DNA of 64,000 nt from Escherichia virus TH47: sequence record MT446416.1; one strand, 5' to 3'. Below are positions 11,323-63,870 of the stretch, one piece after another. The notes under the pieces were generated by a model, which had not been told where the DNA came from, ran no database searches, and saw only the letters and a program-made list of their open reading frames with translations. The position numbers were made by a program, and so were the translations under genes. Every line of letters begins with the position of its first letter. Position 1 is the first letter of the stretch.

Positions 11323-12148
11323 CTTCGTTTTTCCTTTCAATCATGTTCATTTCAATTTCGATTTGACGAGTGTGTGATGGTGTAAAACCATGCATCTCAA
11401 GTAAATCGTCTCGGATGTTACGAACATTTTTCTCACTATTAAGAATCGAACGGAAACTATTGTTAACGAACGAAGTATAGTAAGAGAAAGGATTCAACTG
11501 TACTGCTGGTTTATCTTTTTTGTAAAGAATACTCTCTTTAAAGAGAAGTGCGTTTTTAACTAATTGTATTCTGGCATCACCCATCATTTCATCCAAATAT
11601 GTATAGTTTCTATAGTTGGATTTGTGTGAGATTTCCTCTGCCAGTTTAATGAACATTTTACCTAGTTCATTAGTGATTTTACCATGAACAGTACTGAATT
11701 CTCCGTCTTCAAGATCACCTTTCCAGTGAGAACGAACAACTTCGTACAGAATACCTTCTTCATCTACAATGTAATGTTTGAATGGTTCAAAATTAACTCT
11801 TGTATCTGCTGGGATATGATCATCGGTAATTACACGAATAACCACCTCATCGATAGGTACATCAGTCAGTACTAAATTGTGCTCATCTGCGTATTCCTTC
11901 GCTTTCTTCGCACTCATACCTTCTTTTTCACGAATTGCATCAAGCATTTCATTGTTGAGACGTTTAATACGTGCTGCTTTAGCTTTATCTAAAAGTTCTG
12001 CTGTAATTTCGGATTCATCAAAAACTATATAATCATACATACTGTAGCACTTATCAAGTAACCAGCAATATGAGATTTTACTTTTTTGTATCTCACGAAG
12101 TAAATCAGCATTGTTAAGATACTTTTTACGCTTCGGCCTATTTGTCAT
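11309..12148 (-). CDS. Late-transcription sigma factor, gp55-like, with an inserted/extended N-terminal region
   Basis: ORF-track start 12250 is TTG; ATG 12148 (MTNRPKRKKYLNNADLL) has GGAGAG RBS and resembles T4 gp55 N-terminus; C-terminal ELGKMFIKLAEEISHK...NPFSYYTSFVNNSFRSIL resembles gp55 GLAIMLIAEGLSKR...NPHAYITQACFNAFVQRI (from memory). Confidence 0.6.
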   Translation of the reverse strand: MTNRPKRKKYLNNADLLREIQKSKISYCWLLDKCYSMYDYIVFDESEITAELLDKAKAARIKRLNNEMLDAIREKEGMSAKKAKEYADEHNLVLTDVPIDEVVIRVITDDHIPADTRVNFEPFKHYIVDEEGILYEVVRSHWKGDLEDGEFSTVHGKITNELGKMFIKLAEEISHKSNYRNYTYLDEMMGDARIQLVKNALLFKESILYKKDKPAVQLNPFSYYTSFVNNSFRSILNSEKNVRNIRDDLLEMHGFTPSHTRQIEIEMNMIERKNEDGSI

Positions 12149-12236
12149 TATTTCAACTCTCCATGTTTTAAATCCAATAGGTACATTCCTTGTACCATCA
12201 ATGTTATTATAGCACCAAAAACGTCTTTGTCCCACG

Positions 12237-12244
12237 TATAAATA
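12237..12244 (+). promoter_or_regulatory. Candidate T4-type late promoter (TATAAATA)
   Basis: Exact TATAAATA 36 nt upstream of ATG 12280, first gene of the plus-strand baseplate block. Confidence 0.45.
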
Positions 12245-12279
12245 CATCAAATGTTCCCTTCTTATGGAGAATCAAAAAG

Positions 12280-23496: not shown

Positions 23497-23532
23497 AATC
23501 AAATGAATGAACGAATTATATGGAGTCCAAAA

Positions 23533-32500: not shown

Positions 32501-33501
32501 TATTCACAACTGATGGTGAAGATTATGTGAGATACCAAAACAATGCATGGGAAACCATCTTGAGTGTATCAAAAATCAAAACTGACACCACACCAACCTT
32601 GTACACAGTAAGAAACACTGCGAACGGAACTGTAGAACTACTAGATAGTACTGGAGTTGTACTTCGTTATGATAACATCACTAAACAACAGAATGAACCA
32701 GCAATACCTCTAGCATTGAACATCGTTCGTATTAGAACCTTTGCTGATCCAGAATTCTTGGTTGATGGTGTTAAGTTGTATGAAACAAATAGAAATTATG
32801 CTATCGACGCAATGAACTATGAAGTATTCTACGACACAACACTATACGGTGGTTCTTATAATGATGGAATTACACCAGATGACGTTGATGTTTGGGTAGT
32901 GTCTAACGAGATATTTGAAGTTGATGGTGTTACCATTGATAACGGATATAACTTACCAATTACTGGTGCAGGTGTTCTTAGTGAGTTAGTGAGAACAAAA
33001 ATGACTGATAGTGTGGAAATTAACGTGTTCGAGTATGATGTTGGTATTATTCAACCTGTACTGAATGCTGAAGGGGTATGGGAATATGCATATCCACTAG
33101 TTAGTGATACATATATTGGTGTAGTTGGTGGAACAGTAACTAACATTACTGCTATCAGTGAAGAAAATGCTACTTATGTTTCACAACCAGATTCAGTTAG
33201 TCCATATAGTGTTACTAATAATGTTCTATCTGGTGCTGGTGCAAGTATGAATGATATTATTTCTCTTGGTTTTGAAAAAGTTGAAGTACGATTTGCAAAT
33301 AACTTACTCCGTGGGGTAATGTATAGTGCAGAACACGACTTTAAAGAGAATGTGACATATTCATTTAATGGATTGAACTTAGGTAAAGTTAATTTACTAA
33401 AACGTTATAGTGTTAACAGTTATCCAATCGAACTATCGGTTTACTCCGATAGTTTGCAAATAAGTGGTAATGACATTAAAAATCTATTAGAAGTTAAATA
33501 A
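23533..33501 (+). CDS. Giant (3322-aa) virion structural protein in baseplate position (gp7-like position; function unknown)
   Basis: Uninterrupted ORF of about 10 kb; start placed at ATG 23533 (GGAG RBS) rather than 23503; follows gp6-like gene; typical phage structural-protein composition. Confidence 0.5.
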   Translation: MTNNFKFQPTQMAEAVQKKLFIKRLPEWMQGLEDIQKVSDDVIQQWFNPAENELVDGYIGDMGSPAAAGNIFLHESTVARQLYQLSTAYVSRNNDSSIRSIQFYDDLVGYMNHYGALTENESRLFNGKFYSWTPPINPNKMNNYSSYLWDSKNSYNITTPDYIVMERGAENGNTWSLQNFWYTLGETLEDGTILTEELMQDSRFVRARAPIIEYNKNIELMNYGTKFRGTVDLFSDIIKPEDIVQKDINSGIRIDGIIPQDGMRILFTSIGNNGENNRIYKVYVKRMQDGTRVYGLALDPDEESESRPSGEPQDGDVVLIIKGNEFGNSSMYWNGSHWIQAQSKTSVNVFPQFQLYDRNGVKLNNTTTYPSSTFTGSSLFGFKINYNYATDSVYGYNIELGDYNYYTYENFLQSTRYTYEHLGVEVEIDGLYYYNVIGEGNTMNLETDWVRSTEYSKQYVKQTPQVERTVMFRVFSTVYDMESFKDPVEGMYAYVIEVDRTYQYYKAERETYLDWHVIVGDGVQSVKYNHTFELAQKVLDNSDDIIELVVDGVEIKEYTKTVVNNQVQSITIDSSVDLDEDSVVQIRTYSSTITPNKELGAYEVPINLQNNPYNSNIEYINQGDYTQHFQDIIQKNITSGSADDFNNYEERLASGLVNNGVGTKIIQNEASMLPLMAHTANEDIDLFESIMFMQAEYFRFINKFNTQMLRLYEEDPSAFLGNSASNIVDAILTAINMGRDSTFPFYYDNVASTAGFIRAFVPPTPQFLGILQAYTPQKATFLTAGSKSSWYNISHTGIISKAYRVINGVDKMDDVVFELENRIFNSIDLTFKDIDYKPVLNSEDLFPTPYFTGTDYSAEEKKTLLLRGYINFTATNGISNSTHDYDANNWRTWNYTGSYYVVDGQRTEIPARGSWRAIYTDQYGTYRPATHPWEMMGFSQRPTWWNQEYEPTAVQVGEREGDVVYVYEALVMNESGDLVPSGLWDIDGTIGDSSTGTILSGERRGQYDKYKRFGVQPFKITKTGEKTSTGIDICEVEYIAPEVLGLVSGNLDHRAEPWAYGDMGDMEFTYMNTAMFAYDQMLLLYKAKPAQFANYYWDTRNDNLKPVYTDGSQFLYGETRKRLNFDSTTLVHGEKNTRTIGYQMFVSDYLMYQNKNITTKYGDVVRSSYVNVAHKIGGFTKADQLTFTAKSFGLISQENQTIGLVRSNNILDEQMSAVKITWNGSAYQIDGYDLVGAKFKYKIPVKNGRKVTLKLEDRTVVHYNEWKSEGTLEYGKIFNTYQEVYTFICGYGEYLKEHGWIFEDVNDSGAQQDWTTIAKDFVIWSQNSLSTGEFISCTPSAANAKFGADFGSVQSVTQNSGGVWSLLDDENQGIRQYEIETSRIGNVFTVRTTSESQKRMALIRLSLSSYEHAVVFDDKTIFGDFIYQPTYGAIQELIKMYGYITGSWTGRLQAPGFIILEAGTLPSFEKLVTDFDLYYNSETPVSDVQLQELSNHLIGYQTRDYLQRMISSDVSRVDFYKGFIHDKGTNQVMEKVLRVSKSYDTDEYKALQEWAFKIGTYGNINGKKNLQFKLINDQFKQQPQMVSFDVNATSNGTGNGIVYYGEQGVDPRWITRPNGKFSFPMRSGRSENIQLPDIGPVTLDEISYVTKDFSTAYNDRINYMNNSGEIPDSVWMFKDGNDLWNIFELVDTEVEMLSIVPIENTDVYAEQFCKVTLSDDIPLNDGDYYYFVDETNFMPDTLTIESQYYTAGNDPRVMVVPFDTSITIDFTDPDTRPRLYRYVSRFSTEEMRQEYIDRKYSFKAPQSTLFDRPTTYDERTNITALYLNVFDPINGVIPGAAMQNVTYTSPVDPAQYNSNGELIQAWGADKVGQVWWNTSTAFYLDYTRAIYDADGNVDVDATNEYKRYNWGRLLPHSTVDVLEWVCSPVEPYNWDKYCKDVANKNKNNTMYLPSGTALEDNYSTFLEYDSTTDTYVTKYYFWVRDTIYVPPLHSRTKSCTDIARIIKEPAQLNIPWFAPINESSFILSNMQFEVNDDTSILTVSYYMDNTEVIKHDQYQLCKEGDSYNFNPSIWTSMWNSMIGQETTESGTVIDLLYPLVPNGLGSNKTWFQDVIEARRNFVESANNYYRSQNITTNTVLMDEVFNVKTTEVNPNEVSYRVLTYNSELVIAPESDKFKENDAVLVSTSGVLPNPLSTSSVYFVHIDANGYIHLMNSPSSAGSVVTITLENRGEGQQKMIKQSDYVEALGTSLDMTQYWSLADWYDIGYDKNTAYTQESSLEDANTKNYQVGDIIRITDVDGIWTLYIKAQSRDSVYWKAIGRENSTVELNDMLYADYTVRDANGSLSNREINVRKALALLKNSFDLHQSEIVFDMVKYVHVEQSVVDWVFKTSYIYIVGLEQSLVQNYSNDNLINQIVEYFEEVKPYRTKIRSQIEQKTSDDDLIKGLCNDLDPNGYIFADGTWVKTEKDIWDYEYAQFNEVTQRWEQVGELPSDFVTPNRRFQEIDVIMHYDNTQCKPNDNLASVDVLEEVNKKYQSNAQDVVSDFELQRYKYTFPEYSDEDFDLLVAYQMQLYYPELNVTLGIAYGVNQWYAEHADDLVATAEFTETLNRVYKESTQNEMFNDVNHYVQYNTLSNRLKLYTGADDEVIHDEVGCGFSGLTYDDNPSTRLPFGYASSTDYNFGYFEVSSELYNKYVSLIKENNTTATDDEVRIILEVEYGVYSYRHVDEDGNQRFYNDAIHVLSGMRGLYDKDATDHYEKAEEILSRMPIDIHAFTMMPRKYVYVNVNGVYESIPDDQSIDDFMEDKFITDGQLVQLAEINLDDLPLDRNNPMYSDYQHILDSITNAKYYDDMNAFDNLALESQTSELKWEVEGDEVDPYIIDISDINPSGRKIGQIRFTVDGYGFNSVSRVQLRDNSRYKTEGMVIINPYKTTEAIVSIPSYAKIENDISKSYSKYDEKYFYKIKSIVSDTEAEVIDNTLSDGDKVMIFTTDGEDYVRYQNNAWETILSVSKIKTDTTPTLYTVRNTANGTVELLDSTGVVLRYDNITKQQNEPAIPLALNIVRIRTFADPEFLVDGVKLYETNRNYAIDAMNYEVFYDTTLYGGSYNDGITPDDVDVWVVSNEIFEVDGVTIDNGYNLPITGAGVLSELVRTKMTDSVEINVFEYDVGIIQPVLNAEGVWEYAYPLVSDTYIGVVGGTVTNITAISEENATYVSQPDSVSPYSVTNNVLSGAGASMNDIISLGFEKVEVRFANNLLRGVMYSAEHDFKENVTYSFNGLNLGKVNLLKRYSVNSYPIELSVYSDSLQISGNDIKNLLEVK

Positions 33502-33507
33502 CAAAAA

Positions 33508-33536
33508 GGAGAGCAAATGCTCTCCTTTTCTTTTTT
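33508..33536. terminator. Bidirectional rho-independent terminator between convergent genes
   Basis: GGAGAGC-aaat-GCTCTCC hairpin with A-run upstream and T-run downstream. Confidence 0.65.
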
Positions 33537-35823
33537 ACGCAATAACTTTTTCTACTGCTTTAGTTCGTTTAGGTTTGATTGCCAATTTACCATCAATCAC
33601 ATCAAACGTTACGTTACCACCATTAACCAGAGAACCACACAACATCTCTTTAGCTAGTGGGACACGGATGTTTTGCTCAATAGTGCGTTTCATTGGACGT
33701 GCACCCATTCCAACTTTAACACCATTTGTTGCCAACCACTCACGAGCCGCTTTGGTCAGTGAAACTTTAACTTTGCGGTCTTTGATTTGTTCATTCAAAC
33801 TTCCCATGAACTTATCAATGATGCTGTCAATCGCTTCGCTGCTTAGGTCTTTGAATGTCACAATACTATCGATACGGTTGATGAATTCAGGTGGCAAGAA
33901 TGCTTTAATCGCTTTATCTTGTGCTGTATCACTACCGCTCATCCCAATACTACGCTTGGTTGAATCTGCTGCACCAAGGTTAGTCGTCATAATAACAGTT
34001 ACGTTATTGAAGTAAACAGTTTTACCTTGTGAACCAGTCAAACGTCCTTCGTCCAGAACCTGTAGGAAGGTTAGTAGTACTTTACGATCAGCTTTTTCGA
34101 TTTCATCGAGCAACAGTACTGCATTCGGGAACTGCTCAATCTTGTCGAGTAGCAGACCGTTACCAGAATCGTGACCAACATAGCCTGGAGGTGAACCAAT
34201 CAGTTTAGCAACAGTATGTTCCTGTGAAAACTCGGACATATCGAAACGAATCAGTTCAGAACCAGTTGCATCAGCCAGTGCTTTGGTAATTTCAGTTTTA
34301 CCAGTACCAGATGGCCCAACAAACATGAATGCACCTTGAACACTTGATTTATCACGCAGACCAGCACGAGCTACCATCACGTTATCAACCAGTTTCTGTA
34401 CTGCTTCTTCTTGACCGTATACACGAGAACGGAGTGCATCTGGTAGATTACGCATACGTTCACTTTCAGTGCAAGCAACCACGTTAATATCTAGGTTTGC
34501 GATACCTGCAACAACTTCTTGAATCAGTGCAACAGTGATGATGTTATCATCAGTTTCACGAGAACGTACTTTCGCTGCCGCCGCATCCATTAGGTCGATT
34601 GCTTTGTCAGGGAAGTGTTTGTTCTTCAGGAACTTATCACTTAGTGTAATAACTGCATCCATTGCTTCAGTACTGAACTCTACGTTATGGAAAGTTTCAT
34701 AAGTAGATTTCAAACCATTCACAATCGCACGGGTTTCATCAATTGATGGCTCAACTACATCAATTTTCATGAAACGACGAGTTAGTGCACTATCTTTTTC
34801 GATGTTTTTACGATATTCATCGTAAGTTGTTGCACCGATTACACGAATCTCACCACGAGATAGTGCAGGTTTGAGCATGTTGCTCATATCCATAGAACCG
34901 TTGCTTGCTGAACCAGCACCAACCATAATATGGATTTCATCGATGAACACAATAGTGTTTTCACGTTTCTTCAGTTCTTTTAGTAGGTTATCGATACGTT
35001 CTTCGAACTCACCACGGTACTTAGTACCAGCAGTCAGTGCACCTACGTTCAGAGACAGAATTTCAACATCTTTAAGATGCTCTGGTACTTCACCATCAGC
35101 GATTGCCTGTGCTAGACCATCAATGATTTGAGTTTTACCAACACCAGCTTCACCAGTCAGGATGGCATTCTTCTTAGTCTTACGGGCCAGAGTTTCAATC
35201 AGTGCAGAAAGCTCTTTCTGGCGACCAATCATTGGGTCAAGTTTACCTTCTTTTGCAAGTGCTGTTAGGTTAGTGGTGTAATCTTCTAAACCTTTTTGTT
35301 TGGACGATGGTTGCTGTTGTGCCACTTTTTTCTCCCCAGTTGGCTCATCACTAATGCTTTGAAGGTTGATTCCGTTGTCGATTGCTTCTACGTGCTTCTG
35401 TAGAGTTCGTGCTGCTTCAGTACAAGTGATACCCTCTTCACGCAATGCTGCTTCTAGTGCAGTATTTGGGAAGGACAAACACTCAAACAGTACAAAATAA
35501 GCATCAATTGAGAAATCATCACGTTTAAGTTGCTCAATTACTGATTTCTTAGAAAGTTCCTGAACTACACGGTTCACGAGAAGTGATGTGCGGTTCGCTT
35601 CATCACCATCAGCACTTTTAGGTGCATGTGGGAATGTTGTATTCTTCAGATATGCAATCAAACGACCGTGTAGGTTGTCTGCATCGATGTTCATATCTTC
35701 AAATACTGCTTTGATGCTATCGATTGTCAGTACTGTAGCACTTAGATGGTCAATAGTCAAGAAGGTATGACCCAGAGAAGTTGCCAGTTCGTCGCTTTTT
35801 TTGAATAATTGGGTAAGATTCAT
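33535..35823 (-). CDS. ClpA-like double-AAA+ unfoldase (Clp ATPase family)
   Basis: 762 aa from ATG 35823 (AGGAGA RBS; ORF-track start is GTG); N-domain begins like ClpA; two Walker A motifs GEAGVGKT and GPSGTGKT, Walker B FIDEIH and LLDEIEKA, GARPMKR sensor; no long ClpB M-domain; KRSIGM at the position of the ClpA IGL ClpP-docking loop. Confidence 0.85.
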   Translation of the reverse strand: MNLTQLFKKSDELATSLGHTFLTIDHLSATVLTIDSIKAVFEDMNIDADNLHGRLIAYLKNTTFPHAPKSADGDEANRTSLLVNRVVQELSKKSVIEQLKRDDFSIDAYFVLFECLSFPNTALEAALREEGITCTEAARTLQKHVEAIDNGINLQSISDEPTGEKKVAQQQPSSKQKGLEDYTTNLTALAKEGKLDPMIGRQKELSALIETLARKTKKNAILTGEAGVGKTQIIDGLAQAIADGEVPEHLKDVEILSLNVGALTAGTKYRGEFEERIDNLLKELKKRENTIVFIDEIHIMVGAGSASNGSMDMSNMLKPALSRGEIRVIGATTYDEYRKNIEKDSALTRRFMKIDVVEPSIDETRAIVNGLKSTYETFHNVEFSTEAMDAVITLSDKFLKNKHFPDKAIDLMDAAAAKVRSRETDDNIITVALIQEVVAGIANLDINVVACTESERMRNLPDALRSRVYGQEEAVQKLVDNVMVARAGLRDKSSVQGAFMFVGPSGTGKTEITKALADATGSELIRFDMSEFSQEHTVAKLIGSPPGYVGHDSGNGLLLDKIEQFPNAVLLLDEIEKADRKVLLTFLQVLDEGRLTGSQGKTVYFNNVTVIMTTNLGAADSTKRSIGMSGSDTAQDKAIKAFLPPEFINRIDSIVTFKDLSSEAIDSIIDKFMGSLNEQIKDRKVKVSLTKAAREWLATNGVKVGMGARPMKRTIEQNIRVPLAKEMLCGSLVNGGNVTFDVIDGKLAIKPKRTKAVEKVIA

Positions 35824-35861
35824 GTATTCTCCTAAATGAGTAGTCACTCTAATTAATAAAC

Positions 35862-35889
35862 ATTATATCACATTCTTTGCGTTTGTCAA
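35862..35889 (-). promoter_or_regulatory. Near-consensus sigma70-type promoter (TTGACA-N16-TGaTATAAT) for ClpA-like gene
   Basis: Minus strand reads gTTGACAaacgcaaagaatgtgaTATAATg; about 30 nt upstream of ATG 35823; same motif recurs twice at 59336-59457. Confidence 0.5.
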
Positions 35890-53826: not shown

Positions 53827-54756
53827 TTATACAGCCATTGGTGCTTTGATTGTTGGCATTGGATCGTAATTAACTAATTTGAAAGAATCCATAGTGAAAT
53901 CTTCAATATCAGTAATAGTAGGATCTAACCATAATTCTGGTAATGTACGTGGTTCACGTTGGAGTTGCTCTTTTACTTGTTCAATATGGTTTTGATAGAT
54001 ATGGCAGTCGCCACCATTCCAAATAAATTCACCAACATCTAACCCAGTAATTTGTGCAATCATATGAGTTAGTAGTGAGTAACTACTAATGTTAAATGGT
54101 ACACCAAGGAATAAATCAGCACTGCGTTGATGAAGAATACAACTTAGTTTACCCTGTACAACACAAAACTGCACAAAGCTATGACAGGGTGGCAAAGTCA
54201 TAGCATCAAGCTCACCAACGTTCCATGCACTTAGAATGTGACGACGACCGTATGGATCAGTATTGATACCTTCAATAACTTGTTTTAGCTGGTCAGTTAC
54301 ACGACGCATAATAACACCATGTGAACCAGTATAATCAATAACTTTATACCCTTTATCTTTTAGTTCTTGAATTTCTTCAGTACTGGAACTGAATTTATAA
54401 TCTTCCCATTCACGCCATTGTTTACCATAAACTGGGCCAAGCTCACCATCAGAATACCCAAGGCTTACACCTTGATTAAGGTAGTTGTCTGTCCAAATTG
54501 TTTTCTTTTCTACATCACGTGTCCCGTGTAAAATTTCACACAGACGACGCTCATCGTGAGAACCTTCAATAAACCATAACAATTCTGAAGTCATTGCTTT
54601 CCAAGCCAAACGTTTAGTAGTTACTGCTGGGAAACCTTCTTTTAGGTCAAAACGCATTTGTTGTCCGATTAGCTTGATAGTGCCAACACCAGTACGATCA
54701 ACGCTTTCGACACCTTGATCCAGAATTCTTTGATATAGTTCTTGTAGTTGTTTCAT
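53827..54756 (-). CDS. thyA: Thymidylate synthase (ThyA/Td family)
   Basis: Near-collinear similarity to E. coli ThyA: DRTGVGT, GPVYGKQWR, RRHILSAWNVGELDAMTLPPCH (catalytic Cys), QFCVVQGKLSC, HQRSADLFLGVPFNISSYSLLTHMIA, KAPMAV C-terminus; one about 25-aa insertion. Confidence 0.9.
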   Translation of the reverse strand: MKQLQELYQRILDQGVESVDRTGVGTIKLIGQQMRFDLKEGFPAVTTKRLAWKAMTSELLWFIEGSHDERRLCEILHGTRDVEKKTIWTDNYLNQGVSLGYSDGELGPVYGKQWREWEDYKFSSSTEEIQELKDKGYKVIDYTGSHGVIMRRVTDQLKQVIEGINTDPYGRRHILSAWNVGELDAMTLPPCHSFVQFCVVQGKLSCILHQRSADLFLGVPFNISSYSLLTHMIAQITGLDVGEFIWNGGDCHIYQNHIEQVKEQLQREPRTLPELWLDPTITDIEDFTMDSFKLVNYDPMPTIKAPMAV

Positions 54757-55349
54757 TTTACGTCCTTGAAAAATGTAATAAAGTGTTCCATGTGTTTTTG
54801 TGTAGCATTACGTGAACCAATCCCAGTCCAGTTACCGTGTGGTGCTGGTATTGAGAATGTTTCAGTAAACTCTTTCAGTACTGTATCATAATAAAATACA
54901 GAGCGAGTGTTCATATCATAACAATATATTTCTGGATTATCAACTGAATCCATATACATCTGTACTGCCCATGCAGTTCCACCTGAAACTTGCGTAGGTG
55001 ATGTAATATTTGCAATACAATATACTCTTTTAGTATTAAGTATCTGATAACTATTTCTTGCAAGTAATTTATATACATACGAACCGGGCTTCGGAACTGT
55101 TCGGCGTAAAGAGTAACATGCAATGTTTAATTGTTTTAATATTGAACTATCACAAAGGATATTGGATGGAATTTCTAATATAGTATTTTCATCTACGCTG
55201 CTTTGGTGACCCTTGAATGAAAAATTTATTACTTCAAATCCATTGTCTTTTGCATAGATAGAAAAAAGGCGGTCAGCACCTGCTGCCCCGCCACTGAAAC
55301 ATACATTAGATAAACCATTGATTGCTTCATCTAATTCTATTTTATTCAT
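54753..55349 (-). CDS. Hypothetical Rossmann-like protein (GGAAGAD motif; SLOG/DprA-like?) co-transcribed with thyA
   Basis: 198 aa; ATGA overlap with thyA start; N-terminal VCFSGGAAGADRLF nucleotide-binding-like motif; no DHFR similarity. Confidence 0.35.
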   Translation of the reverse strand: MNKIELDEAINGLSNVCFSGGAAGADRLFSIYAKDNGFEVINFSFKGHQSSVDENTILEIPSNILCDSSILKQLNIACYSLRRTVPKPGSYVYKLLARNSYQILNTKRVYCIANITSPTQVSGGTAWAVQMYMDSVDNPEIYCYDMNTRSVFYYDTVLKEFTETFSIPAPHGNWTGIGSRNATQKHMEHFITFFKDVK

Positions 55350-56304: not shown

Positions 56305-56338
56305 CTGAAAAAAGTAGAGAACGGAATTTTCCGTTCTC
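56305..56338 (-). terminator. Rho-independent terminator after vWA gene
   Basis: GAGAACGG-aatttt-CCGTTCTC hairpin followed on the minus strand by TACTTTTTT. Confidence 0.6.
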
Positions 56339-56350
56339 ATTATTTAGTAC

Positions 56351-57760
56351 TTAGCTACGTTGACGCTTTTTGTCAGCTTCATATTCGTAGTGTACAGTTT
56401 CGCCAAATGGTGCTTGTTTGTTAGGATTACTGTGGATAACAAACAGTGTCTTACAGTAATCAGGATCACCCCATGACTGCCACGGCTCACCATCGGTAAA
56501 CATAATAAGCTGTTTAGGCTTATAGTTGTCATGCTTCATATGAACCCATACTGCTTCAAAGTCAGTACCACCACCACCTTTCACTGGATATTCGAGAATC
56601 TTACTCTCTTCACCAGTTTTGTAATCTTTAACAGTATAAACTTCAGTATCGAACGTCATGATACGGATTTTAAATTGTTTAAACTGCTTAGTGATACCCA
56701 GTACTTCACTGATGAAATCACGGAGCATATCTTCAGAGATAGAACCGGATGCATCTAGTGCAATTGCAATATCAATATCATCATCTGGTTTCATGCCTGG
56801 GAAGATTGGATTCCCGTAGAATGAACCAGTACTACCAAAACCAGCACCCCATGAACGACGATTAGGACTTTGATAAGTTGCGTCAGACTTCAACCAGCTA
56901 CGCAGTGTGCGGTGAAGTTTGGAACGCCAGTCAATCTTAGGTTCTTTGAAGTTGTTAATCATACGTGCGATTTCAGCAGGAGTACCACCTGCACGAGCAG
57001 CATTCATCATTGCTGTTTTGAAATCATCCATATAATCACGTTTTTGTTTATCACTTGAACCACCTTCTTGACCTTCTTGTGGAACGTCATGCTGGTCGAT
57101 TGTTGTACCTTTGCCTTTACCATCTTTGATATCACCAAAAGTACCGCGTGATTTACCTTCACCCTCACCACTACCAGCCTGTGGATTTCCTTCACCTTCC
57201 CCGTCTTGATCCTGTTTATCTTCTTCTTCGAGAATGTTATAAATCTCTTCAGCAGTCATACCATCGTACTTTTTATCGTACAGCCATTGGCTTTGGATTT
57301 TACCAATTTTATCACGAACAAGAATCTGGTTAATTGCATAGTCAGCAGCACGGTTATAACGCTGCGGGTCACGCATACCACGACGCAAGAAGTGGTCATA
57401 TGCACAGTGAAGAATCTCATGACAGATAACTGCAATCAGGTTTTCATCAGTCAAACCTTCTGTCATTTCTTTAAGTTGTTCTTCAGTTACTTCAGGATGT
57501 TTCTCACGAATTGCTTCTTCGTATGCGGACTTTTTGGATTGGTCCTGAATACCCATGATGAATTCTACGTTGTAGAATAAATGCTTACCATCTACTGCCA
57601 AAGTACGACACCATGTATTGTTTGCAACTGGACGCAGACGAGAAGCCAGTACACCAAAGAATGGGAATGTTAGCATTAAAGATGTGCGAGCTAAGATCAG
57701 ACGATCTTGACATTCTTTCTGGAGAGCCGGAGTAACATCACTGAAACGTTTATCTGACAT
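56351..57760 (-). CDS. HExxH metallopeptidase-like / von Willebrand factor A (vWA) domain protein, partner of MoxR-like ATPase
   Basis: 469 aa; N-terminal AVICHEILHCAYDH (HExxH); C-terminal vWA with MIDAS DASGS and MFTDGEP; immediately downstream of AAA+ ATPase on same strand. Confidence 0.8.
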   Translation of the reverse strand: MSDKRFSDVTPALQKECQDRLILARTSLMLTFPFFGVLASRLRPVANNTWCRTLAVDGKHLFYNVEFIMGIQDQSKKSAYEEAIREKHPEVTEEQLKEMTEGLTDENLIAVICHEILHCAYDHFLRRGMRDPQRYNRAADYAINQILVRDKIGKIQSQWLYDKKYDGMTAEEIYNILEEEDKQDQDGEGEGNPQAGSGEGEGKSRGTFGDIKDGKGKGTTIDQHDVPQEGQEGGSSDKQKRDYMDDFKTAMMNAARAGGTPAEIARMINNFKEPKIDWRSKLHRTLRSWLKSDATYQSPNRRSWGAGFGSTGSFYGNPIFPGMKPDDDIDIAIALDASGSISEDMLRDFISEVLGITKQFKQFKIRIMTFDTEVYTVKDYKTGEESKILEYPVKGGGGTDFEAVWVHMKHDNYKPKQLIMFTDGEPWQSWGDPDYCKTLFVIHSNPNKQAPFGETVHYEYEADKKRQRS

Positions 57761-57792
57761 TTGTATTTCCTCGTTTAGTTAAGATAAAAGAA

Positions 57793-57810
57793 GGATACCA
57801 TGTGGTATCC
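57793..57810 (-). other. Intercistronic stem-loop between ATPase and vWA genes
   Basis: GGATACCA-tg-TGGTATCC palindrome in the 75-nt gap, followed on minus strand by a T-rich stretch; possible attenuator or processing site. Confidence 0.4.
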
Positions 57811-57835
57811 TCCTTGTCAACACTCTTTTTAATTA

Positions 57836-59164
57836 TTAACCAAGAGAGCGTGCTTTACGTACTAGGTCAGAGTACTTCATAACGAAGTCTTTAAACGCTG
57901 GTACATCTTTAATCGTAATCGCTACTTTATGAAGCGTGATGGTACGAATCGCCAGTACTGCCAGTTCTGCTTGAGTTGCAGAGAAGTTATGGTCTAGGAA
58001 GGTGATGAAGTTGTTGCACAGCTTACCCCAATCTTCCACTGGTAGACGTTGTTCTTGCTTCTCATTGTAGAGGTCGATAATTTTGTAAACCAGATTCAGA
58101 GTGATGAAGTAGTTCGCGGAAATATCAAGCGAAGCATCAATCTCTTTAATCTCACCCTGTAGGATGGACATGGTATCTGGTAGTTTAGCTACGTTATCAA
58201 CATACTCGATGTATTCAGTTGCTACGCCTTCACCAACACGACCTGCAATCATCGCACGGAACACTTCTTTATCAATGTTCTTAACTTTCTTCAGATCTTC
58301 GTAGCGTGCTACTGCTTCCCATGAACGTGGAGAAGTACCACCACAGTGAGAAGGATCTTGTGGGCTAAGGGTGTTGAAGTGTTTAGCACCAGTGTTGTTG
58401 ATGAACGCAACAGTTGCTGGGTTCAAACGCTTGCCAATCGCATAATCGTTAATCCAATCTTGATGATAAGGAATCATTTCGATGTGGGTCATACGGTCAC
58501 GCAGTGGTGTAGCTAGAGAGAACGTTACACCGCCATCAGTTTCACGGTTACCTGCTGCGAGAATCAGTGCAGTCTTAGGTAGCTTCATCTCACCAACACA
58601 ACGGTCGAGGATTAGCTGGTAAGACGCTGCCTGTACAATCGGCATTGCAGAGTTGATTTCGTCAAACAGGATAACACCTTTCCAATCATCGGGCAATTTC
58701 AGTACTTTTGGTGCTGCCCACACAACTGCTGTTTCAGCGATGTAATCTTGTGCACTAGCCAGTTCAGATTCAATCAGTTGCTTACCATCCATATCAAGGA
58801 ACACTTTCTCTGGAACTGGAATACCACGAAGGTCACTTGGTTCAATCTGAGACAAACGGAAATCGATAAAGTTAGTGTCTTGGTCGATTAGTTTGGCTTC
58901 AAACGCTGCCAGTTCACGGCGAAGTTGATCGGCATTTTCAGTATCAGCTTCGATTTGTTGTTTCATGAACTCAATTTTTGCCACGTTATCTTTACGCAGT
59001 GGGTAGTTCTCATCAGCGTATTGACGTGCGATAGCAGATTTACCGATACCAGGGCTACCCCAAATCATCAGGCTATCTTGAATCATGTCAGCCAGTGCCA
59101 TTGCTTCTTTAGCTTTCTTAGGAGTCAGTTTTACGTTCAGGATATCGTTGTTTTGAGTAGACAT
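57836..59164 (-). CDS. MoxR-like AAA+ ATPase
   Basis: 442 aa; Walker A GSPGIGKS, Walker B ILFDEIN, AAGNRE sensor, RDR motif; IDFRLSQIEPSDLRG resembles the MoxR post-Walker-A signature; about 45-aa coiled-coil insertion. Confidence 0.85.
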   Translation of the reverse strand: MSTQNNDILNVKLTPKKAKEAMALADMIQDSLMIWGSPGIGKSAIARQYADENYPLRKDNVAKIEFMKQQIEADTENADQLRRELAAFEAKLIDQDTNFIDFRLSQIEPSDLRGIPVPEKVFLDMDGKQLIESELASAQDYIAETAVVWAAPKVLKLPDDWKGVILFDEINSAMPIVQAASYQLILDRCVGEMKLPKTALILAAGNRETDGGVTFSLATPLRDRMTHIEMIPYHQDWINDYAIGKRLNPATVAFINNTGAKHFNTLSPQDPSHCGGTSPRSWEAVARYEDLKKVKNIDKEVFRAMIAGRVGEGVATEYIEYVDNVAKLPDTMSILQGEIKEIDASLDISANYFITLNLVYKIIDLYNEKQEQRLPVEDWGKLCNNFITFLDHNFSATQAELAVLAIRTITLHKVAITIKDVPAFKDFVMKYSDLVRKARSLG

Positions 59165-59335
59165 GTATATTTTCCTTTTGTTGGATAAAATCGTTTAGGT
59201 TTCTATTATAGCCAATCCGTGGGCAAAAGTAAAGGAACTGTGTTAAAAGAATTTTTAACTTATCAGTTCCTTTGTTACTTCATGAATCATCCGTGTATTT
59301 AAAAAGGCATTTCTCTTTGCCGTCTTGATGTGGTC

Positions 59336-59363
59336 ATTATATCACATCGTTCAGGCTTGTCAA
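59336..59363 (-). promoter_or_regulatory. Near-consensus sigma70-type promoter, copy 1 (TTGACA-N16-TGaTATAAT with upstream A-tract)
   Basis: Minus strand reads aaaaaaaagttgTTGACAagcctgaacgatgtgaTATAATgacc; directs transcription toward MoxR gene (start 59164). Confidence 0.5.
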
Positions 59364-59429
59364 CAACTTTTTTTTATTTCTTTTTCAATCTCACATCTTG
59401 TGATTTTGAAAACTTGCTTCGTGGTGGTC

Positions 59430-59457
59430 ATTATATCACATCATTCGGCGTTGTCAA
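59430..59457 (-). promoter_or_regulatory. Near-consensus sigma70-type promoter, copy 2 (tandem duplicate)
   Basis: Minus strand reads aaaaaaaaagatgTTGACAacgccgaatgatgtgaTATAATgacc; about 94 bp upstream of copy 1. Confidence 0.5.
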
Positions 59458-59484
59458 CATCTTTTTTTTTCTTTATTTTCGAAG

Positions 59485-59865: not shown

Positions 59866-60258
59866 TTACATCCCCACAAAACCCTGTCTTGCTGCATATG
59901 AAGGAGCATCTTTAACTTTATAGTCTTGGACACCATCTTTACCAATTTTCGGACCCATATCTTTGGTTCCGAAGCAGCAATCAGTGGATTCATCAACTTC
60001 TTCAGTACTTTCATCATTATATCGAACATCCGATAAAATGTCACACGCTTTTTGAAGCTTTTCTACGATTTCTTTTTGATCTTCACCTGATTTAACCTTA
60101 TCCACAATGTGGATAAGGCATTCGGTGATATCTTTAAGTAAATCGGTGGCTACAGCATCAGAAGGAGTCTCAACTGCAAAACTTTCTTCTTCAGTAGATT
60201 CTTCACTAGAAGTGATTTCATCTAATGCTTCAACCAATTCACGATAATTATATCCCAT
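59866..60258 (-). CDS. Acidic hypothetical protein
   Basis: 130 aa, Glu/Asp-rich (SSEESTEEESF..., DESTEEVDESTD); GGGGA RBS. Confidence 0.4.
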   Translation of the reverse strand: MGYNYRELVEALDEITSSEESTEEESFAVETPSDAVATDLLKDITECLIHIVDKVKSGEDQKEIVEKLQKACDILSDVRYNDESTEEVDESTDCCFGTKDMGPKIGKDGVQDYKVKDAPSYAARQGFVGM

Positions 60259-60259
60259 C

Positions 60260-61249
60260 TTATTTGTCCCCTAGAAATTGTTGATATTTCTTCTGGAGAC
60301 TTTCGAAAATGTCTTCGACTTCTTCATCGCTTTCATCTTCTAGTTCTTCGTTACCTTCCACGGACTCATCACTCTCATTAACATTGAGTGGGTTGTCACC
60401 TAGAGCAGTACCTGGAAACTTAGGTTCAAATTTGTGAACACGGTTCTCGTTACCGTCATTGTCATAGTACTCTGGTTCAGGACGATTGTCAACATCTTCA
60501 TCAACGACACGTCTCCAGTAGAACTTGTTACCCTTGGTAATAACAACAAAGTGGTCACCTTCTACACCATTAGTTTTAGCTTGACCGTCACGAACGGCAT
60601 CAGCTTCAGTGTTGTAAGGTCCAAAATCAGTACTGTCACCTTGTTCTTCATCTTCAGAGATGGTTAGGTCTGGTAGGAAAGTGTTTTCTTCAACTTTAAC
60701 TTCAGTATCTGGGTTACCTTCTACTGAATATTCATCTTCTGGTTCGTCTTGAAGACCAGCTAGAGATAGCATACGACTGAAATCGAATTCTTCTTCGATG
60801 ATTTCTTCTTCTTCCTCTTCTTCAACTGATTCTAGTTGAGGTTGACCGGAAAGATCTAAAGAAAACTCTTCTTCATCTGCAACCCCAGGCTCTTCGAACT
60901 CTGCATCCATACTTACTTCTTCAGAATCACCACCAAAATCACCAGCTTCAGCAGATAGTGAGTCAGCAGCTACTTCCAATGGGTCTTCAACTGGTGCATC
61001 AATCGCACCATCCATTGCACCACCAACTTCTTCTTCAGCACCAGCACCAATGGAATCCATGTCGAGTGGAGCGATTGGTGGTAGAGAAGGGGTCATAGAC
61101 CCCATAGAAGGAACTGGAGCAGCAACAGGAGAAGCTTGACGCTCTGCTTGACCAGCTAATGCAAGCATACGAGATAGTGTTTCTAGATCTTCAGATTCTA
61201 GACCTGCGATATCGATTTTAACTTGTGCTTCATTAATTTTTTTAGCCAT
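60260..61249 (-). CDS. Highly acidic hypothetical protein with duplicated SRML(A/S)LAG motif
   Basis: 329 aa, long poly-Glu/Asp tracts (EEEEEEEIIEEEFDF), repeated LSRMLALAGQAE / FSRMLSLAGLQDE motif. Confidence 0.45.
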   Translation of the reverse strand: MAKKINEAQVKIDIAGLESEDLETLSRMLALAGQAERQASPVAAPVPSMGSMTPSLPPIAPLDMDSIGAGAEEEVGGAMDGAIDAPVEDPLEVAADSLSAEAGDFGGDSEEVSMDAEFEEPGVADEEEFSLDLSGQPQLESVEEEEEEEIIEEEFDFSRMLSLAGLQDEPEDEYSVEGNPDTEVKVEENTFLPDLTISEDEEQGDSTDFGPYNTEADAVRDGQAKTNGVEGDHFVVITKGNKFYWRRVVDEDVDNRPEPEYYDNDGNENRVHKFEPKFPGTALGDNPLNVNESDESVEGNEELEDESDEEVEDIFESLQKKYQQFLGDK

Positions 61250-61271
61250 TTTAAATAAATCCTTTTAGTTA

Positions 61272-62774
61272 TCAATCATTCTTATTTAATGATTTTAAAA
61301 TTTGCACTGTTTCATCCTTTTTACCAGATAGTAAAATGTCAGCAGCAATTAGAGAAACCTCATCACCACGCGTTAATAGTACTGTAATTTTCTTAGCGTA
61401 AGGTGATTCTTTAATTCGTGAAGCTAATGATTGAACTTCATCCCCAGCAGCAGGAACTTCAGGTTCTGGCTCTGCAACAGGTTCTGGTTCTTTAGTAGGC
61501 TCAGCTTTTGGCTCAACTACATCAGTACTTGATACTTCAGCATCTACTTTCTCTTCAGGTTCTTCTTCTTTCTTATCAGCACGTTCTGCATCATAACGAG
61601 CAAGAATGTTATCAGCAGTTGATTTTGGAATCAATTTACCATCAGCACTAATAAAGCGGTTACCACCGATATAAGAATACTCTGTGCCTTTCTTAGATTT
61701 TACTTTAGTTCCGATTTTCATTGCACCAGAACTGTTATGGCGAATTATATCACGTTGTGCAGCACGTTCAACACTTTTTGCAGCACTAACATTTAGTTGT
61801 TTTTTAGTTTCTACATCAAACCATGCATCTTTTTGTTTAATGTATGTTTTACCTTTATTTGAAGTAATGCGGTAACCATTTGGAACCACAACAGATTCAG
61901 TTTCTTCAATCTCTTCATCTGCTTCATTAATGGATTCTTTTGTTGCGAATACTGGCTGTTTTACTGGTTGTTTAGGTTTTTCACCTGAACCAAAACGTTG
62001 TTCACCTGATTCATGATCACCAGTTAGTGAAGGGAAATCACCAGGGTTAGCCTTAACAAATTTCTGATATGCATTAAAGATTGCATGTGCATTTTGTTCT
62101 GGAATTACAACATTACCATCATTATCACAAAATTCTTTACCATTCCATTCGGAACGAGTATTACCTTGTACTAAAGTAGATTTAATTGGAATTAGTTTGT
62201 TTTTTGGTGCTAATTGGCGAGCAATACGCATACCTTCATCGGAAAGTTTACGAGTCATTGCTGGGTCAACTGGACGTCCAGATTTTGCATCAACAAAACG
62301 GTGATTTTTAGGGATGAATTTAAATCCACTAACTTCCATACCTGCTGGAATAGAAATATCATCAGCATATGGTGGAAGGATATAGAATTTTAGTGAGTTC
62401 CATTCTTTTTGTAGAGTTTCTTTTGAAACATTATATACACGGTGGTCATCTGCCATTAGTTCAGTGATAATTTCACTTTCAGTTAGTAGAATTCCATCTT
62501 TAGAATTGAAACGATTTTCACCAAGAAATGTACACTCTTTACCTTCAAGAATATATTTGTTACCAATTTTATATTCACTAGAAGATAGATTGTGCTCAAC
62601 AATCTGTTGTCGAGCACTTGCGTACATGGATGGGTATTTTTTAGGGTCTACCATTAACATATTATTGTCGTTAAACCAGAAACCTTCTAGAAATACATAT
62701 TTGCCACCAGTGTGAGAAGTATATACATATCCATTAGGTACTGTGGTAGTTTCAGTACTGAAAAAATTATCCAT
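61272..62774 (-). CDS. Hypothetical protein with internal duplicated modules
   Basis: ORF-track start 62816 is GTG; ATG 62774 with AAGGAG RBS; two copies each of VPNGY.(Y/R)TS..G..Y and KIG.K...(E/K)G.E.(T/S)..G.NRF.S.DG.L modules; Pro/Glu-rich linker near C-terminus. Confidence 0.45.
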   Translation of the reverse strand: MDNFFSTETTTVPNGYVYTSHTGGKYVFLEGFWFNDNNMLMVDPKKYPSMYASARQQIVEHNLSSSEYKIGNKYILEGKECTFLGENRFNSKDGILLTESEIITELMADDHRVYNVSKETLQKEWNSLKFYILPPYADDISIPAGMEVSGFKFIPKNHRFVDAKSGRPVDPAMTRKLSDEGMRIARQLAPKNKLIPIKSTLVQGNTRSEWNGKEFCDNDGNVVIPEQNAHAIFNAYQKFVKANPGDFPSLTGDHESGEQRFGSGEKPKQPVKQPVFATKESINEADEEIEETESVVVPNGYRITSNKGKTYIKQKDAWFDVETKKQLNVSAAKSVERAAQRDIIRHNSSGAMKIGTKVKSKKGTEYSYIGGNRFISADGKLIPKSTADNILARYDAERADKKEEEPEEKVDAEVSSTDVVEPKAEPTKEPEPVAEPEPEVPAAGDEVQSLASRIKESPYAKKITVLLTRGDEVSLIAADILLSGKKDETVQILKSLNKND

Positions 62775-62787
62775 GTGTTGATTCTCC

Positions 62788-63333
62788 TTAAGAAAGCATA
62801 CGCAAAAGTTGTTCACGCTGTTCTGGACTTAATTTTTGTAGAACATCAGGGATACTAGAACCTTGTGCTTTTGGCTGTTCCTGTGGTGCTGGTTGTGGAG
62901 CATTGTCAGGTTGAGCTTGTGGTGCAGGACGTTGTTGTTCTTCACCTTTATCATCTTCACGATAATCATTCATCAAGTCACGGGATGCTGCCAATAGAGC
63001 AGAACCAACATCTTTAGGAGTAAAAGTACGACGACTGTTATTACCCAAGTGTTTTATATCAAGGTTATTTCCTTTGAAGAATTGTGCAACATCAGCATAT
63101 GGTACTGATGGCTGTGCTTTACCGTATTTGCGGCCAACATAGCGTTTAAATTCAGCCCAAAGACGGTTTGCTTCTGCACCAACTTCTTGTGCACCTTGTT
63201 CTACTTGACCACTACCGAAAAAGCCTTTTACTTTTCCTTTTGCACTATCTACTGCACTTTGTGAACGACTATATGGACGAGCTTCATTTAGCTCTTCATC
63301 ATTATAGTCTAACATTTCATTAAGTATACTCAT
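62788..63333 (-). CDS. Hypothetical protein
   Basis: 181-aa ORF; Gln/Pro-rich low-complexity tail. Confidence 0.4.
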   Translation of the reverse strand: MSILNEMLDYNDEELNEARPYSRSQSAVDSAKGKVKGFFGSGQVEQGAQEVGAEANRLWAEFKRYVGRKYGKAQPSVPYADVAQFFKGNNLDIKHLGNNSRRTFTPKDVGSALLAASRDLMNDYREDDKGEEQQRPAPQAQPDNAPQPAPQEQPKAQGSSIPDVLQKLSPEQREQLLRMLS

Positions 63334-63336
63334 GTC

Positions 63337-63870
63337 TCAATCCTTTTTACCAAAACCAGCACTCATATATTGAGAGTATTTATTGTCACTTTTAACTGCT
63401 TCAATCGCATCTTTAACTGCGGTTACAGCACGTTCTTCACCAGCTAAATCATGGCTGTCTTCTGGTTTGCCAAAATCAACACCAATTACTGGTTCGTAAT
63501 CGTCAAAGTCAATATCATCTTCGAGTTCGGTCATTTCTTGTTGACGTGGTTCATCTTTACTACGTACACGGATTAGAGCTTCAGTCATACTTAGTAGGTT
63601 ACCAATTTCATACATTAGTACGTTTGATTGAACACCACGGTGGCATTTGAAATCAAACATCCAAATTTCACCACAATCTAATTCATAAAAATCTAGTGGT
63701 TTTTCCATGAAAATAGTTTTCTTGAGTGCCCCAATATCAAATGCATCATAACGATCCATTAGGCGTTGTGATACTTTACTAAGTTGTTCGTTAGTAGGTT
63801 CAACTGCAAACTTGACTCGGTATTCAAAAACTGGTTTTTTATCTGTTAGGATTTGTTGTAATCTATTCAT
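63337..63870 (-). CDS. Hypothetical protein
   Basis: 177-aa ORF with GGAG RBS. Confidence 0.4.
   Translation of the reverse strand: MNRLQQILTDKKPVFEYRVKFAVEPTNEQLSKVSQRLMDRYDAFDIGALKKTIFMEKPLDFYELDCGEIWMFDFKCHRGVQSNVLMYEIGNLLSMTEALIRVRSKDEPRQQEMTELEDDIDFDDYEPVIGVDFGKPEDSHDLAGEERAVTAVKDAIEAVKSDNKYSQYMSAGFGKKD

Follow-up and report, generated by a model that had tools for sequence, protein, structure and literature searches.

Organization of the Locus

The sequence analyzed here is a stretch of 64,000 nucleotides from Escherichia virus TH47 (MT446416.1), referred to below in its full length as the window; the phage is a jumbo coliphage that groups with 121Q and RaK2 (Asteriusvirus and related phages). 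Our subject is a pair of genes at positions 56351-59164, which encode a predicted MoxR-class AAA+ ATPase and a protein, called here the adaptor, in which a zincin-like domain is joined to a domain of the von Willebrand factor A (vWA) type. The region has 99% identity to phages Ecwhy_1, Turkey3, and vB_Ec-M-J, and 87% to 121Q. The preliminary description of this DNA reported two adjacent co-oriented genes, and these match two minus-strand open reading frames (ORFs) with 75 bp between them; the pairing is kept in phages, plasmids, and bacterial loci.

57836..59164, minus strand: ATPase gene, 442 amino acids, MoxR-class AAA+ (ORF list; ortholog of N4 gp24; PHROG 1297)
56351..57760, minus strand: zincin-vWA adaptor gene, 469 amino acids (ORF list; ortholog of N4 gp25; PF13203 and PF09967; PHROG 1314)

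The deposited labels for the two genes vary, and include "ATPase", "MoxR1", "Zn-dependent hydrolase", "VWA domain-containing protein", and "HNH endonuclease". Upstream of the pair, on the same strand, lie virion structural genes, several of them very acidic, and downstream are two uncharacterized genes, a SLOG/DprA-like gene, and thymidylate synthase. The same gene order is kept in RCIP0023, Munch, Serratia phage BF, and one metagenomic contig. The pair had been placed among early-type genes; this is too simple a description, given the structural genes upstream. The pair lies at a boundary between virion genes and nucleotide-metabolism genes and not in a plain early region.

The ATPase Component

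Homolog matches for the two proteins are as strong as E 1e-295 and 1e-288, and chance resemblance is therefore excluded; the ATPase is also matched by PHROG 1297 at E 6e-105. Its conservation was read from two alignments, of 16 and 121 homologs, and in both the previously noted Walker A and B motifs and MoxR signature are present and conserved.

59036..59059, minus strand: Walker A motif GSPGIGKS, residues 36-43 (alignments)
58652..58675, minus strand: Walker B motif VILFDEIN, residues 164-171 (D168 and E169 nearly invariant)
58811..58858, minus strand: MoxR-type motif RLSQIEPSDLRGIPVP, residues 103-118 (alignments)
58319..58561, minus strand: sensor 1 (N206), arginine finger (R224, in PLRDRM), and sensor 2 (P279-R280, in SPRSW) (invariant columns in 121 sequences)
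58874..59005, minus strand: insertion 1, residues 54-97, a helical hairpin (alignment; model helices 61-73 and 78-91)
58721..58816, minus strand: insertion 2, residues 117-148, an extended beta-hairpin beside the MoxR motif (alignment; model strands 115-124 and 141-150)

In the Walker A motif K42 is invariant among the 16 sequences, and G39, G41, K42, and S43 are nearly invariant among the 121. The stretch RLSQxEPxDLRGIP (residues 103-116) is conserved, with D101, L104, D111, and G114 invariant in the smaller alignment. Judged by these residues, the protein is a MoxR-class AAA+ ATPase with a complete set of catalytic motifs.

The AlphaFold (AF2) model of the ATPase is confident, with a predicted local distance difference test score (pLDDT) of 84.9. 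The Foldseek comparison suggested in the preliminary description supports the MoxR class: ranks 1-14 are occupied by NorQ, NorQD, and CbbQ2 (E 3e-7 to 7e-6), and NtrC1, Lon, McrB, and RuvB rank below them. Both NorQ and CbbQ are MoxR ATPases that work with vWA partners. At the level of Pfam profiles, the single sequence passes only PF00004 (AAA), and barely (21.3 bits at a cut-off of 21.2); the thresholds of AAA_5 and AAA_3 are not passed (AAA_3 has 16.8 bits where 27 are required, and AAA_5 does not appear among the matches), and PF07728 is carried by more distant relatives of the family. Membership in the MoxR class holds by structure and transitive homology, not by a direct profile match.

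The coiled-coil insertion mentioned earlier is real and specific to the lineage, and takes the form of the helical hairpin at residues 54-97, modeled at pLDDT 84-93. Both insertions are confined to RaK2/121Q-like phages and some metagenomic relatives, and are missing from N4, PA5oct, and AAA_5-type relatives.

The Adaptor Component

Pfam recognizes two domains in the adaptor, in N-to-C order: PF13203 (DUF2201_N; 125.3 bits, cut-off 23.2), classed as a putative metallopeptidase, and PF09967 (DUF2201; 77.8 bits, cut-off 26.4), classed as VWA-like. Conservation was read from an alignment of 14 sequences (down to 29% identity) and from one of 121 sequences.

57392..57421, minus strand: HEILHCAYDH, predicted zinc-binding and catalytic motif (H114, E115, H118, H123; alignment; model helix 105-120)
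57329..57355, minus strand: NRAADYAIN, second zincin motif (N136, A138, D140, N144), candidate third-ligand helix (14-sequence alignment; model helix 132-149)
57053..57208, minus strand: acidic, glycine-rich flexible linker, residues 185-236, with conserved D222-x-H224 (pLDDT <50)
56786..56884, minus strand: conserved unstructured segment before the vWA domain, residues 293-325 (low pLDDT with invariant or nearly invariant residues)
56354..56785, minus strand: vWA domain with a complete MIDAS, or metal ion-dependent adhesion site (DASGS 56741-56755, GGGGTD 56561-56578, FTDGE 56486-56500)

The architecture proposed at the outset, in which an HExxH zincin-like N-terminus is fused with a vWA domain whose MIDAS is intact, is borne out by Pfam and by the residues on careful alignment. 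Neither alignment shows any variation in H114-E115-x-x-H118. Among the 14 sequences R126, N136, and N144 are invariant, and so are H123 and D140; the larger alignment leaves D140 invariant and H123 nearly so. All residues of the MIDAS (D336-x-S338-G-S340, T399, and D423) are invariant in the 14-sequence alignment and stand on a Rossmann-like vWA fold. In the linker, D222 and H224 are invariant across the 121 sequences. The segment at residues 293-325 holds the conserved residues P299, R301, W304, G307, P321, and G322, and, on the analogy of the NorD finger (PMC13036017), is a candidate ring-docking element. Searches of the PDB with single sequences and with profiles returned only P-loop or generic integrin matches.

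Three relatives of the adaptor carry inteins, two of them (P0282 and P0360) exactly at HExxH|C and one (P0275) in the second motif, at NxxA|CD. Inteins typically sit at conserved functional sites. Since the inteins sit exactly within both zincin motifs, their positions lend independent support to the view that these two motifs form the functional core. The insertions represent two independent sites, both in invariant zincin motifs, and one intein has LAGLIDADG motifs. Fusions of ATPase and adaptor of the Rosetta-stone kind, sought among the long relatives, were ruled out: the extra length is that of the inteins. In PA5oct-like phages a homing endonuclease gene lies between the ATPase and adaptor genes.

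The annotation of the adaptor family contains several errors. PHROG 1314 and many GenBank records mislabel it "HNH endonuclease", and 121Q mislabels it "T4-gp25-like", a mix-up with N4 gp25.

Predicted Regulatory Signals

The gap before the ATPase gene is 320 bp long (59165-59484, minus strand) and contains two perfect sigma70 promoters, nearly identical to one another; an A-tract and an extended -10 element are present in both.

59430..59457, minus strand: promoter P1, A-tract, TTGACA-16-TATAAT, extended -10 TG (12/12 consensus matches)
59336..59363, minus strand: promoter P2, near-identical to P1 and 94 bp downstream of it (12/12 consensus matches)
59224..59273, minus strand: leader hairpin with U-run between the promoters and the ATPase start, terminator or attenuator (-15.4 kcal/mol, z -5.1)
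57788..57815, minus strand: hairpin with U-run between the ATPase and adaptor genes, likely partial terminator (-17.5 kcal/mol, z -5.6)
56317..56338, minus strand: terminator-like palindrome just downstream of the adaptor gene (sequence)

Sites with 12/12 matches to the sigma70 consensus number three in the 64 kb, with 0.16 expected; the third, at 35862-35889 on the minus strand, drives another non-virion AAA+ gene. The hexamers of P1 and P2 are kept in 121Q and RCIP0023, where the spacers differ, and the extended -10 element of P2 is kept in Munch and Serratia phage BF.

The leader hairpin occurs in all five relatives (including 121Q, RCIP0023, Munch, and Serratia phage BF), with a compensatory change from A-U to C-G. 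The intergenic hairpin and its U-run are likewise present in all five, with differing sequences, for instance in Munch and Serratia phage BF. Moreover, the Munch record annotates terminators between the two genes and at the spot equivalent to the palindrome after the adaptor gene. All folds are single-sequence predictions, the sequences of the relatives being too different for alignment-based folding. Taken together, these signals suggest that transcription of the pair would be strong, dependent on the host RNA polymerase, and gated by the leader terminator. Attenuation would yield more ATPase than adaptor, because a second conserved terminator lies between both genes, and the predicted excess fits a 6:1 complex.

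The leader, about 170 nucleotides long with the terminator-like hairpin at its end, has approximately 98% identity to 121Q, as against 87% for the coding DNA, and contains an ORF of 11 codons (ATGATTCATGAAGTAACAAAGGAACTGATAAGTTAA). It could act as an attenuator or as a small RNA of about 100-195 nucleotides; a search of the leader against Rfam gave no match.

An ATAAATA-type motif, which several structural genes possess, is absent upstream of the pair. The T4 late motif TATAAATA was tried as a marker of gene timing and dropped, as it occurs twice in the window with 6.8 occurrences expected. The window also encodes a gp55-like late sigma factor of 313 amino acids (11309-12250, minus strand), and the depletion of TATAAATA, together with ATAAATA-like boxes before several structural genes, suggests a relaxed late-promoter consensus.

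Phylogenetic Distribution and Genomic Context

By tblastn against 50,697 phage records, the adaptor is present in 730 and the ATPase in 810, with near-identical counts per genus. Among the carriers are podoviruses related to N4, Vequintavirinae, jumbo phages of the PA5oct-like and RaK2-like kinds, and Atu_ph07. For the adaptor family, exhaustive searching gave 8,158 clusters (50% identity) at E <= 1e-10.

The setting of the pair differs between lineages. Its neighbors are RNAPII, dCTP deaminase, ThyA, and rIIAB in N4; DNA polymerase, QueE, and RNase H in PA5oct; DNA polymerase I, glutaredoxin, RnlA, and a nudix protein in Atu_ph07; small-ORF arrays and an HD phosphohydrolase in Mydovirus and Certrevirus; and a 5'-3' exonuclease and GTP cyclohydrolase I in the metagenomic contig L026. 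The regions that hold the pair in these six other lineages are non-structural, and for the most part concerned with DNA or nucleotide metabolism.

In rV5-like phages the gene upstream of the adaptor, annotated "anti-sigma factor", was considered as a partner and rejected, as it is not a homolog of the ATPase; the real ATPase partner lies 3.6 kb away on the opposite strand. Another metagenomic contig, L027, encodes at 2806-3706 an adaptor identical to that of L026 with the ATPase gene split into two short ORFs, which may be a decaying or frameshifted partner.

Plasmid and Chromosomal Versions

An ATPase homolog is located upstream of the adaptor homolog, on the same strand, in all ten bacterial loci with sufficient flanking sequence. 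Among matching records of Burkholderiales plasmids, 29 of 73 are conjugative. All four plasmids sampled (L029-L032) carry a cassette in the order ATPase, protein X (about 300 amino acids), adaptor, at 6930-10200 in L029. In L029 and L031, which have MOBH relaxases, the cassette is directly upstream of type IV secretion system (T4SS) genes (VirB11-like ATPase, and TrbC/VirB2 to TraD), and in L029 and L030 a PRTRC system lies upstream of it. Protein X also accompanies the pair in alphaproteobacterial islands, and one of the chromosomal islands with homologous cassettes has a DnaN paralog; L009-L016 also belong to the set of plasmids and islands with the three-gene version. Neither Pfam nor PHROG gives a match for protein X, and the phage loci contain no homolog of it; it may be a client or a third subunit.

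The Burkholderiales and alphaproteobacterial cassettes resemble the phage pair in gene order and in sequence (ATPase, E ~1e-15; the PF13203 and PF09967 protein, E 4e-51 and 9e-22). Their products are annotated "ATP-binding protein", hypothetical protein X, and "VWA-like domain-containing protein", whereas the phage pair has no protein X. A further link is to Synechocystis Sll7029/Sll7028, since "Sll7028/Sll7029 protein" names are attached to phage homologs. The bacterial neighborhoods consist mostly of ORFans with no Pfam or PHROG match, so that they cannot be called as prophages or defense islands.

Comparison with Known Systems

The novelty implied by the preliminary description was overstated. 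Both the sequence and the architecture of the pair are published, and no new kind of system is present here; the pair is described as N4 gp24/gp25 (PMC2784036, PMC6992544) and as a MoxR/metallopeptidase-vWA pair of jumbo phages (PMC7824862). N4 gp24 (an AAA ATPase) and gp25 (vWFA, PF13203) are orthologous to the window pair, with the same order, orientation, and domain architecture. In tblastn comparisons with 3HA13, a phage of the N4 species, the ATPase matches at E 2e-24 and the adaptor at E 3e-29, with approximately 94% of the adaptor covered. In addition, phAPEC6 annotates the orthologs "N4 gp25-like protein" and "MoxR ATPase", and in published tables the pfam13203 proteins are given as gp25 and the adjoining ATPase as gp24. 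The gp24/gp25 pair is conserved across N4-like phages (Schitoviridae), and its function is listed as unknown (PMC2784036, PMC6992544). Compared with N4, the window ATPase has the insertions 54-97 and 117-148 and a longer helical C-terminus, and the window adaptor has an extra helical insert (at about residues 70-100) and a long acidic linker. In contrast to the window pair, the N4 pair has an ORF of 59 amino acids between its genes and RNAPII, dCTP deaminase, and ThyA as neighbors.

Iyer et al. (2021, Viruses 13:63) described, in jumbo phages of group 2.2, which includes Salmonella phage Munch, a MoxR ATPase with a vWA cochaperone fused to an N-terminal metallopeptidase; they called the pair "previously unrecognized" and restricted to this group, and proposed a role in virion assembly with proteolytic processing (PMC7824862). 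Our pair matches theirs by description. However, the spread found here is wider than that restriction, comprising N4-like phages, Vequintavirinae, PA5oct-like phages, Atu_ph07, and plasmids, in mostly non-structural settings.

Among bacterial remodeling machines of the MoxR-vWA kind, NorQ-NorD and CbbQ-CbbO share with the phage pair a full MIDAS in the vWA partner and a partner layout of domain, linker, and vWA. In NorQD the ring takes a vWA finger into its pore, and the linker of NorD is remodeled by the ATPase (PMC13036017); CbbQ6O1 has a stoichiometry of 6:1, and the client residue to which its MIDAS binds is acidic (PMC4660213). The phage ATPase has only 12-14% sequence identity to NorQ and CbbQ and is about 180 residues longer. 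Unlike the phage adaptor, NorD and CbbO have no zincin domain, and their clients are respiratory or carbon-fixing metalloenzymes, none of which occur here.

The p618 (MoxR) and p892 (vWA) proteins from Acidianus two-tailed virus (ATV) are also a virus-encoded pair, alike by description. There p618 is one of the major proteins of the virion, in which no p892 was detected (PMC4124505). The differences are that ATV is an archaeal virus, that its vWA protein has no peptidase domain, and that tailed phages have nothing comparable to the role of its pair in the extracellular growth of tails.

Profile searches placed the pair in no well-characterized family, cobaltochelatase having been named earlier as an example. 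We found no ChlI/CobS-type profile, BchD/CobT-type partner, or CobN/BchH subunit that would point to chelatases (CobS-CobT, BchI-BchD), and the Mg_chelatase match of the ATPase is below the cut-off (16.2 against 20.3 bits). NCBIfam and PADLOC searches of the pair yielded nothing useful. Finally, the third conserved partner that characterizes VMAP-type vWA-MoxR ternary systems (Kaur et al. 2020) was found neither in the window nor in the phage loci.

Proposed Mechanism and Role

We propose that the pair constitutes a two-component ATP-driven MoxR-vWA remodeling protease, which acts before virion assembly and on a target common to invading DNA elements; we rate this explanation as somewhat more probable than an even chance. 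The steps of the mechanism are drawn from NorQ-NorD, CbbQ-CbbO, and midasin. By analogy with these, six ATPase subunits would assemble into a ring, to which a single adaptor would dock by way of its vWA domain and the segment 293-325, and the MIDAS metal would capture the side chain of an Asp or Glu of the client. ATP hydrolysis would then pull or twist the adaptor linker and so remodel the client, after which the tethered zincin site may cut the client or itself become unmasked. Expression would start from the two tandem sigma70 promoters and pass the leader terminator, and the intergenic terminator would leave the ATPase in excess. The least certain part is that the system would act in the pre-assembly, DNA-replication phase of infection, a timing suggested because of the sigma70 promoters and the neighbors in other lineages. 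The client would be common to invading elements, for instance a host or DNA-associated protein, and not a lineage-specific virion protein; a strictly virion-specific client is disfavored because the cassettes occur in virion-less plasmids and chromosomal islands.

Several considerations weigh against this proposal. The hexamer, its 6:1 ratio to the adaptor, and the mode of docking are carried over by analogy. The peptidase activity of the adaptor is a prediction from its motifs, and its N-terminal fold gave no match to a solved zincin, vWA matches filling both result lists. Consensus sigma70 promoters are no proof of early timing, and accessory functions directed at the host are not usually conserved as the pair is, in N4-like phages of very different hosts. 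The genes directly before the pair in RaK2/121Q-like phages are virion structural genes, and mass spectrometry of virion preparations detected the ATPase in phAPEC6 (6 peptides, 19% coverage) and in PA5oct. Furthermore, the searchable literature holds no biochemical, genetic, or transcript data for any member of the family. Nothing functional is reported there on the DUF2201/PF13203 family or on N4-like vWA proteins. The CRISPRi-ART screens cover no phage with the pair, and the main texts of the PA5oct, RaK2, CBB, and Atu_ph07 papers give no gene-level data on it.

The position behind structural genes and the virion proteomics bear directly on the alternative of a chaperone and protease for virion morphogenesis, in which the ring and its metallopeptidase-vWA cochaperone would fold, assemble, and process structural proteins. 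We regard this as unlikely, although it is the explanation already proposed for group 2.2 jumbo phages (PMC7824862) and has a parallel in ATV p618/p892. The structural block precedes the pair on the same strand not only in the window but also in 121Q, Munch, Serratia phage BF, and RCIP0023; the vWA partner was not detected in the virion proteomes of phAPEC6 and PA5oct that contained the ATPase, and ATV shows the same pattern (PMC4124505). The plasmid cassettes, too, stand directly upstream of genes for T4SS and pilus, likewise the building of a large machine. However, the pairs of N4, PA5oct, Atu_ph07, Mydovirus, Certrevirus, and L026 all reside in non-structural regions, and the pair is common to lineages with unrelated virions, podoviruses and myoviruses. 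Dedicated assembly chaperones normally track their clients. The proteomic lists also hold thymidylate synthase, single-stranded DNA-binding protein, and RNase H, that is, non-structural carry-over, and a T4-type prohead protease is already present in phAPEC6. At that, the promoters upstream of the pair are of the sigma70 type and not of the ATAAATA type seen before structural genes. Overall, the neighborhoods, the promoters, the plasmids, and the inteins shift the likely role away from virion assembly, the sole published proposal, which they weaken.

We also entertain, as a rather doubtful idea, that the pair is an "establishment" protease of virulent phages and conjugative elements, which would extract and cleave a conserved host protein. 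Host-type promoters would provide for its expression soon after DNA entry, and MIDAS capture with AAA+ pulling for its action. The client could be a DNA-bound or near-DNA protein, in which case the pair would be a prokaryotic-virus counterpart of SPRTN/Wss1 acting with p97/Cdc48, or it could be a host defense factor.

An improbable explanation is metal-cofactor insertion or enzyme activation, as by NorQD, CbbQO, CoxDE, and the chelatases, in which HExxH would hold or deliver a metal and the client would be a phage enzyme of nucleotide metabolism or replication. The nearest solved relatives, NorQ (insertion of Fe into nitric oxide reductase) and CbbQ (a Rubisco activase), conform to it, as do the recurrent nucleotide-metabolism neighbors ThyA, dCTP deaminase, QueE, GTP cyclohydrolase I, and glutaredoxin. 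On the other hand, no metalloenzyme neighbor recurs consistently across lineages, no third subunit like CobN/BchH is present, and the Mg_chelatase match is sub-threshold. The Pfam class of the N-terminal domain is that of a putative metallopeptidase, and the Glu of HExxH is invariant, though needless for mere metal binding. This Glu is the catalytic base in zincin peptidases.

Least probable is a phage-borne module for defense or superinfection exclusion against competing phages and plasmids, modeled on the bacterial vWA-MoxR ternary systems: MoxR-vWA cores do occur in conflict systems that depend on NTP, and some of these systems have effectors that are peptidases (PMC7159879), and homologs of the pair are found on conjugative plasmids near the PRTRC system, but metallopeptidase effectors are rare in such systems (PMC7159879), PADLOC has no match, the window has no VMAP-like third component or effector array, and the pair is conserved throughout N4-like phages, unlike patchy defense cargo.

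Among phage gene pairs of untested function this is one of the most widespread, and the identity of the client would reveal what invading DNA gains from an ATP-driven, MIDAS-targeted protease. The pervasive mis-annotation of the family as "HNH endonuclease", "T4 gp25-like", and "Zn-dependent hydrolase" would be mended as well.

Other Genes of the Window

The structural genes upstream of the pair include a run at 59866-63870 (minus strand) whose products are structural proteins of the virion and contain long stretches of acidic, low-complexity sequence. A protein of this group has a weak match to a phiKZ internal head protein, and the PHROGs label "Hsp70" on one protein of the run looks spurious. 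On the other side, the SLOG/DprA-like protein (54753-55349, minus strand; YspA-related, 198 amino acids) is encoded directly upstream of thymidylate synthase, an arrangement kept in Serratia phage BF.

The AAA+ gene driven by the third perfect sigma70 promoter (33535-35889, minus strand) encodes a double AAA+ "ATP-dependent protease" of 770 amino acids (PHROG 4871) and stands alone on the minus strand inside a cluster of baseplate and tail-fiber genes. It is a probable second early proteostasis gene. Finally, an ORF of 3,332 amino acids occupies 23503-33501 on the plus strand; by size, its phAPEC6 counterpart appears to be gp245, the 382-kDa virion protein detected by mass spectrometry.

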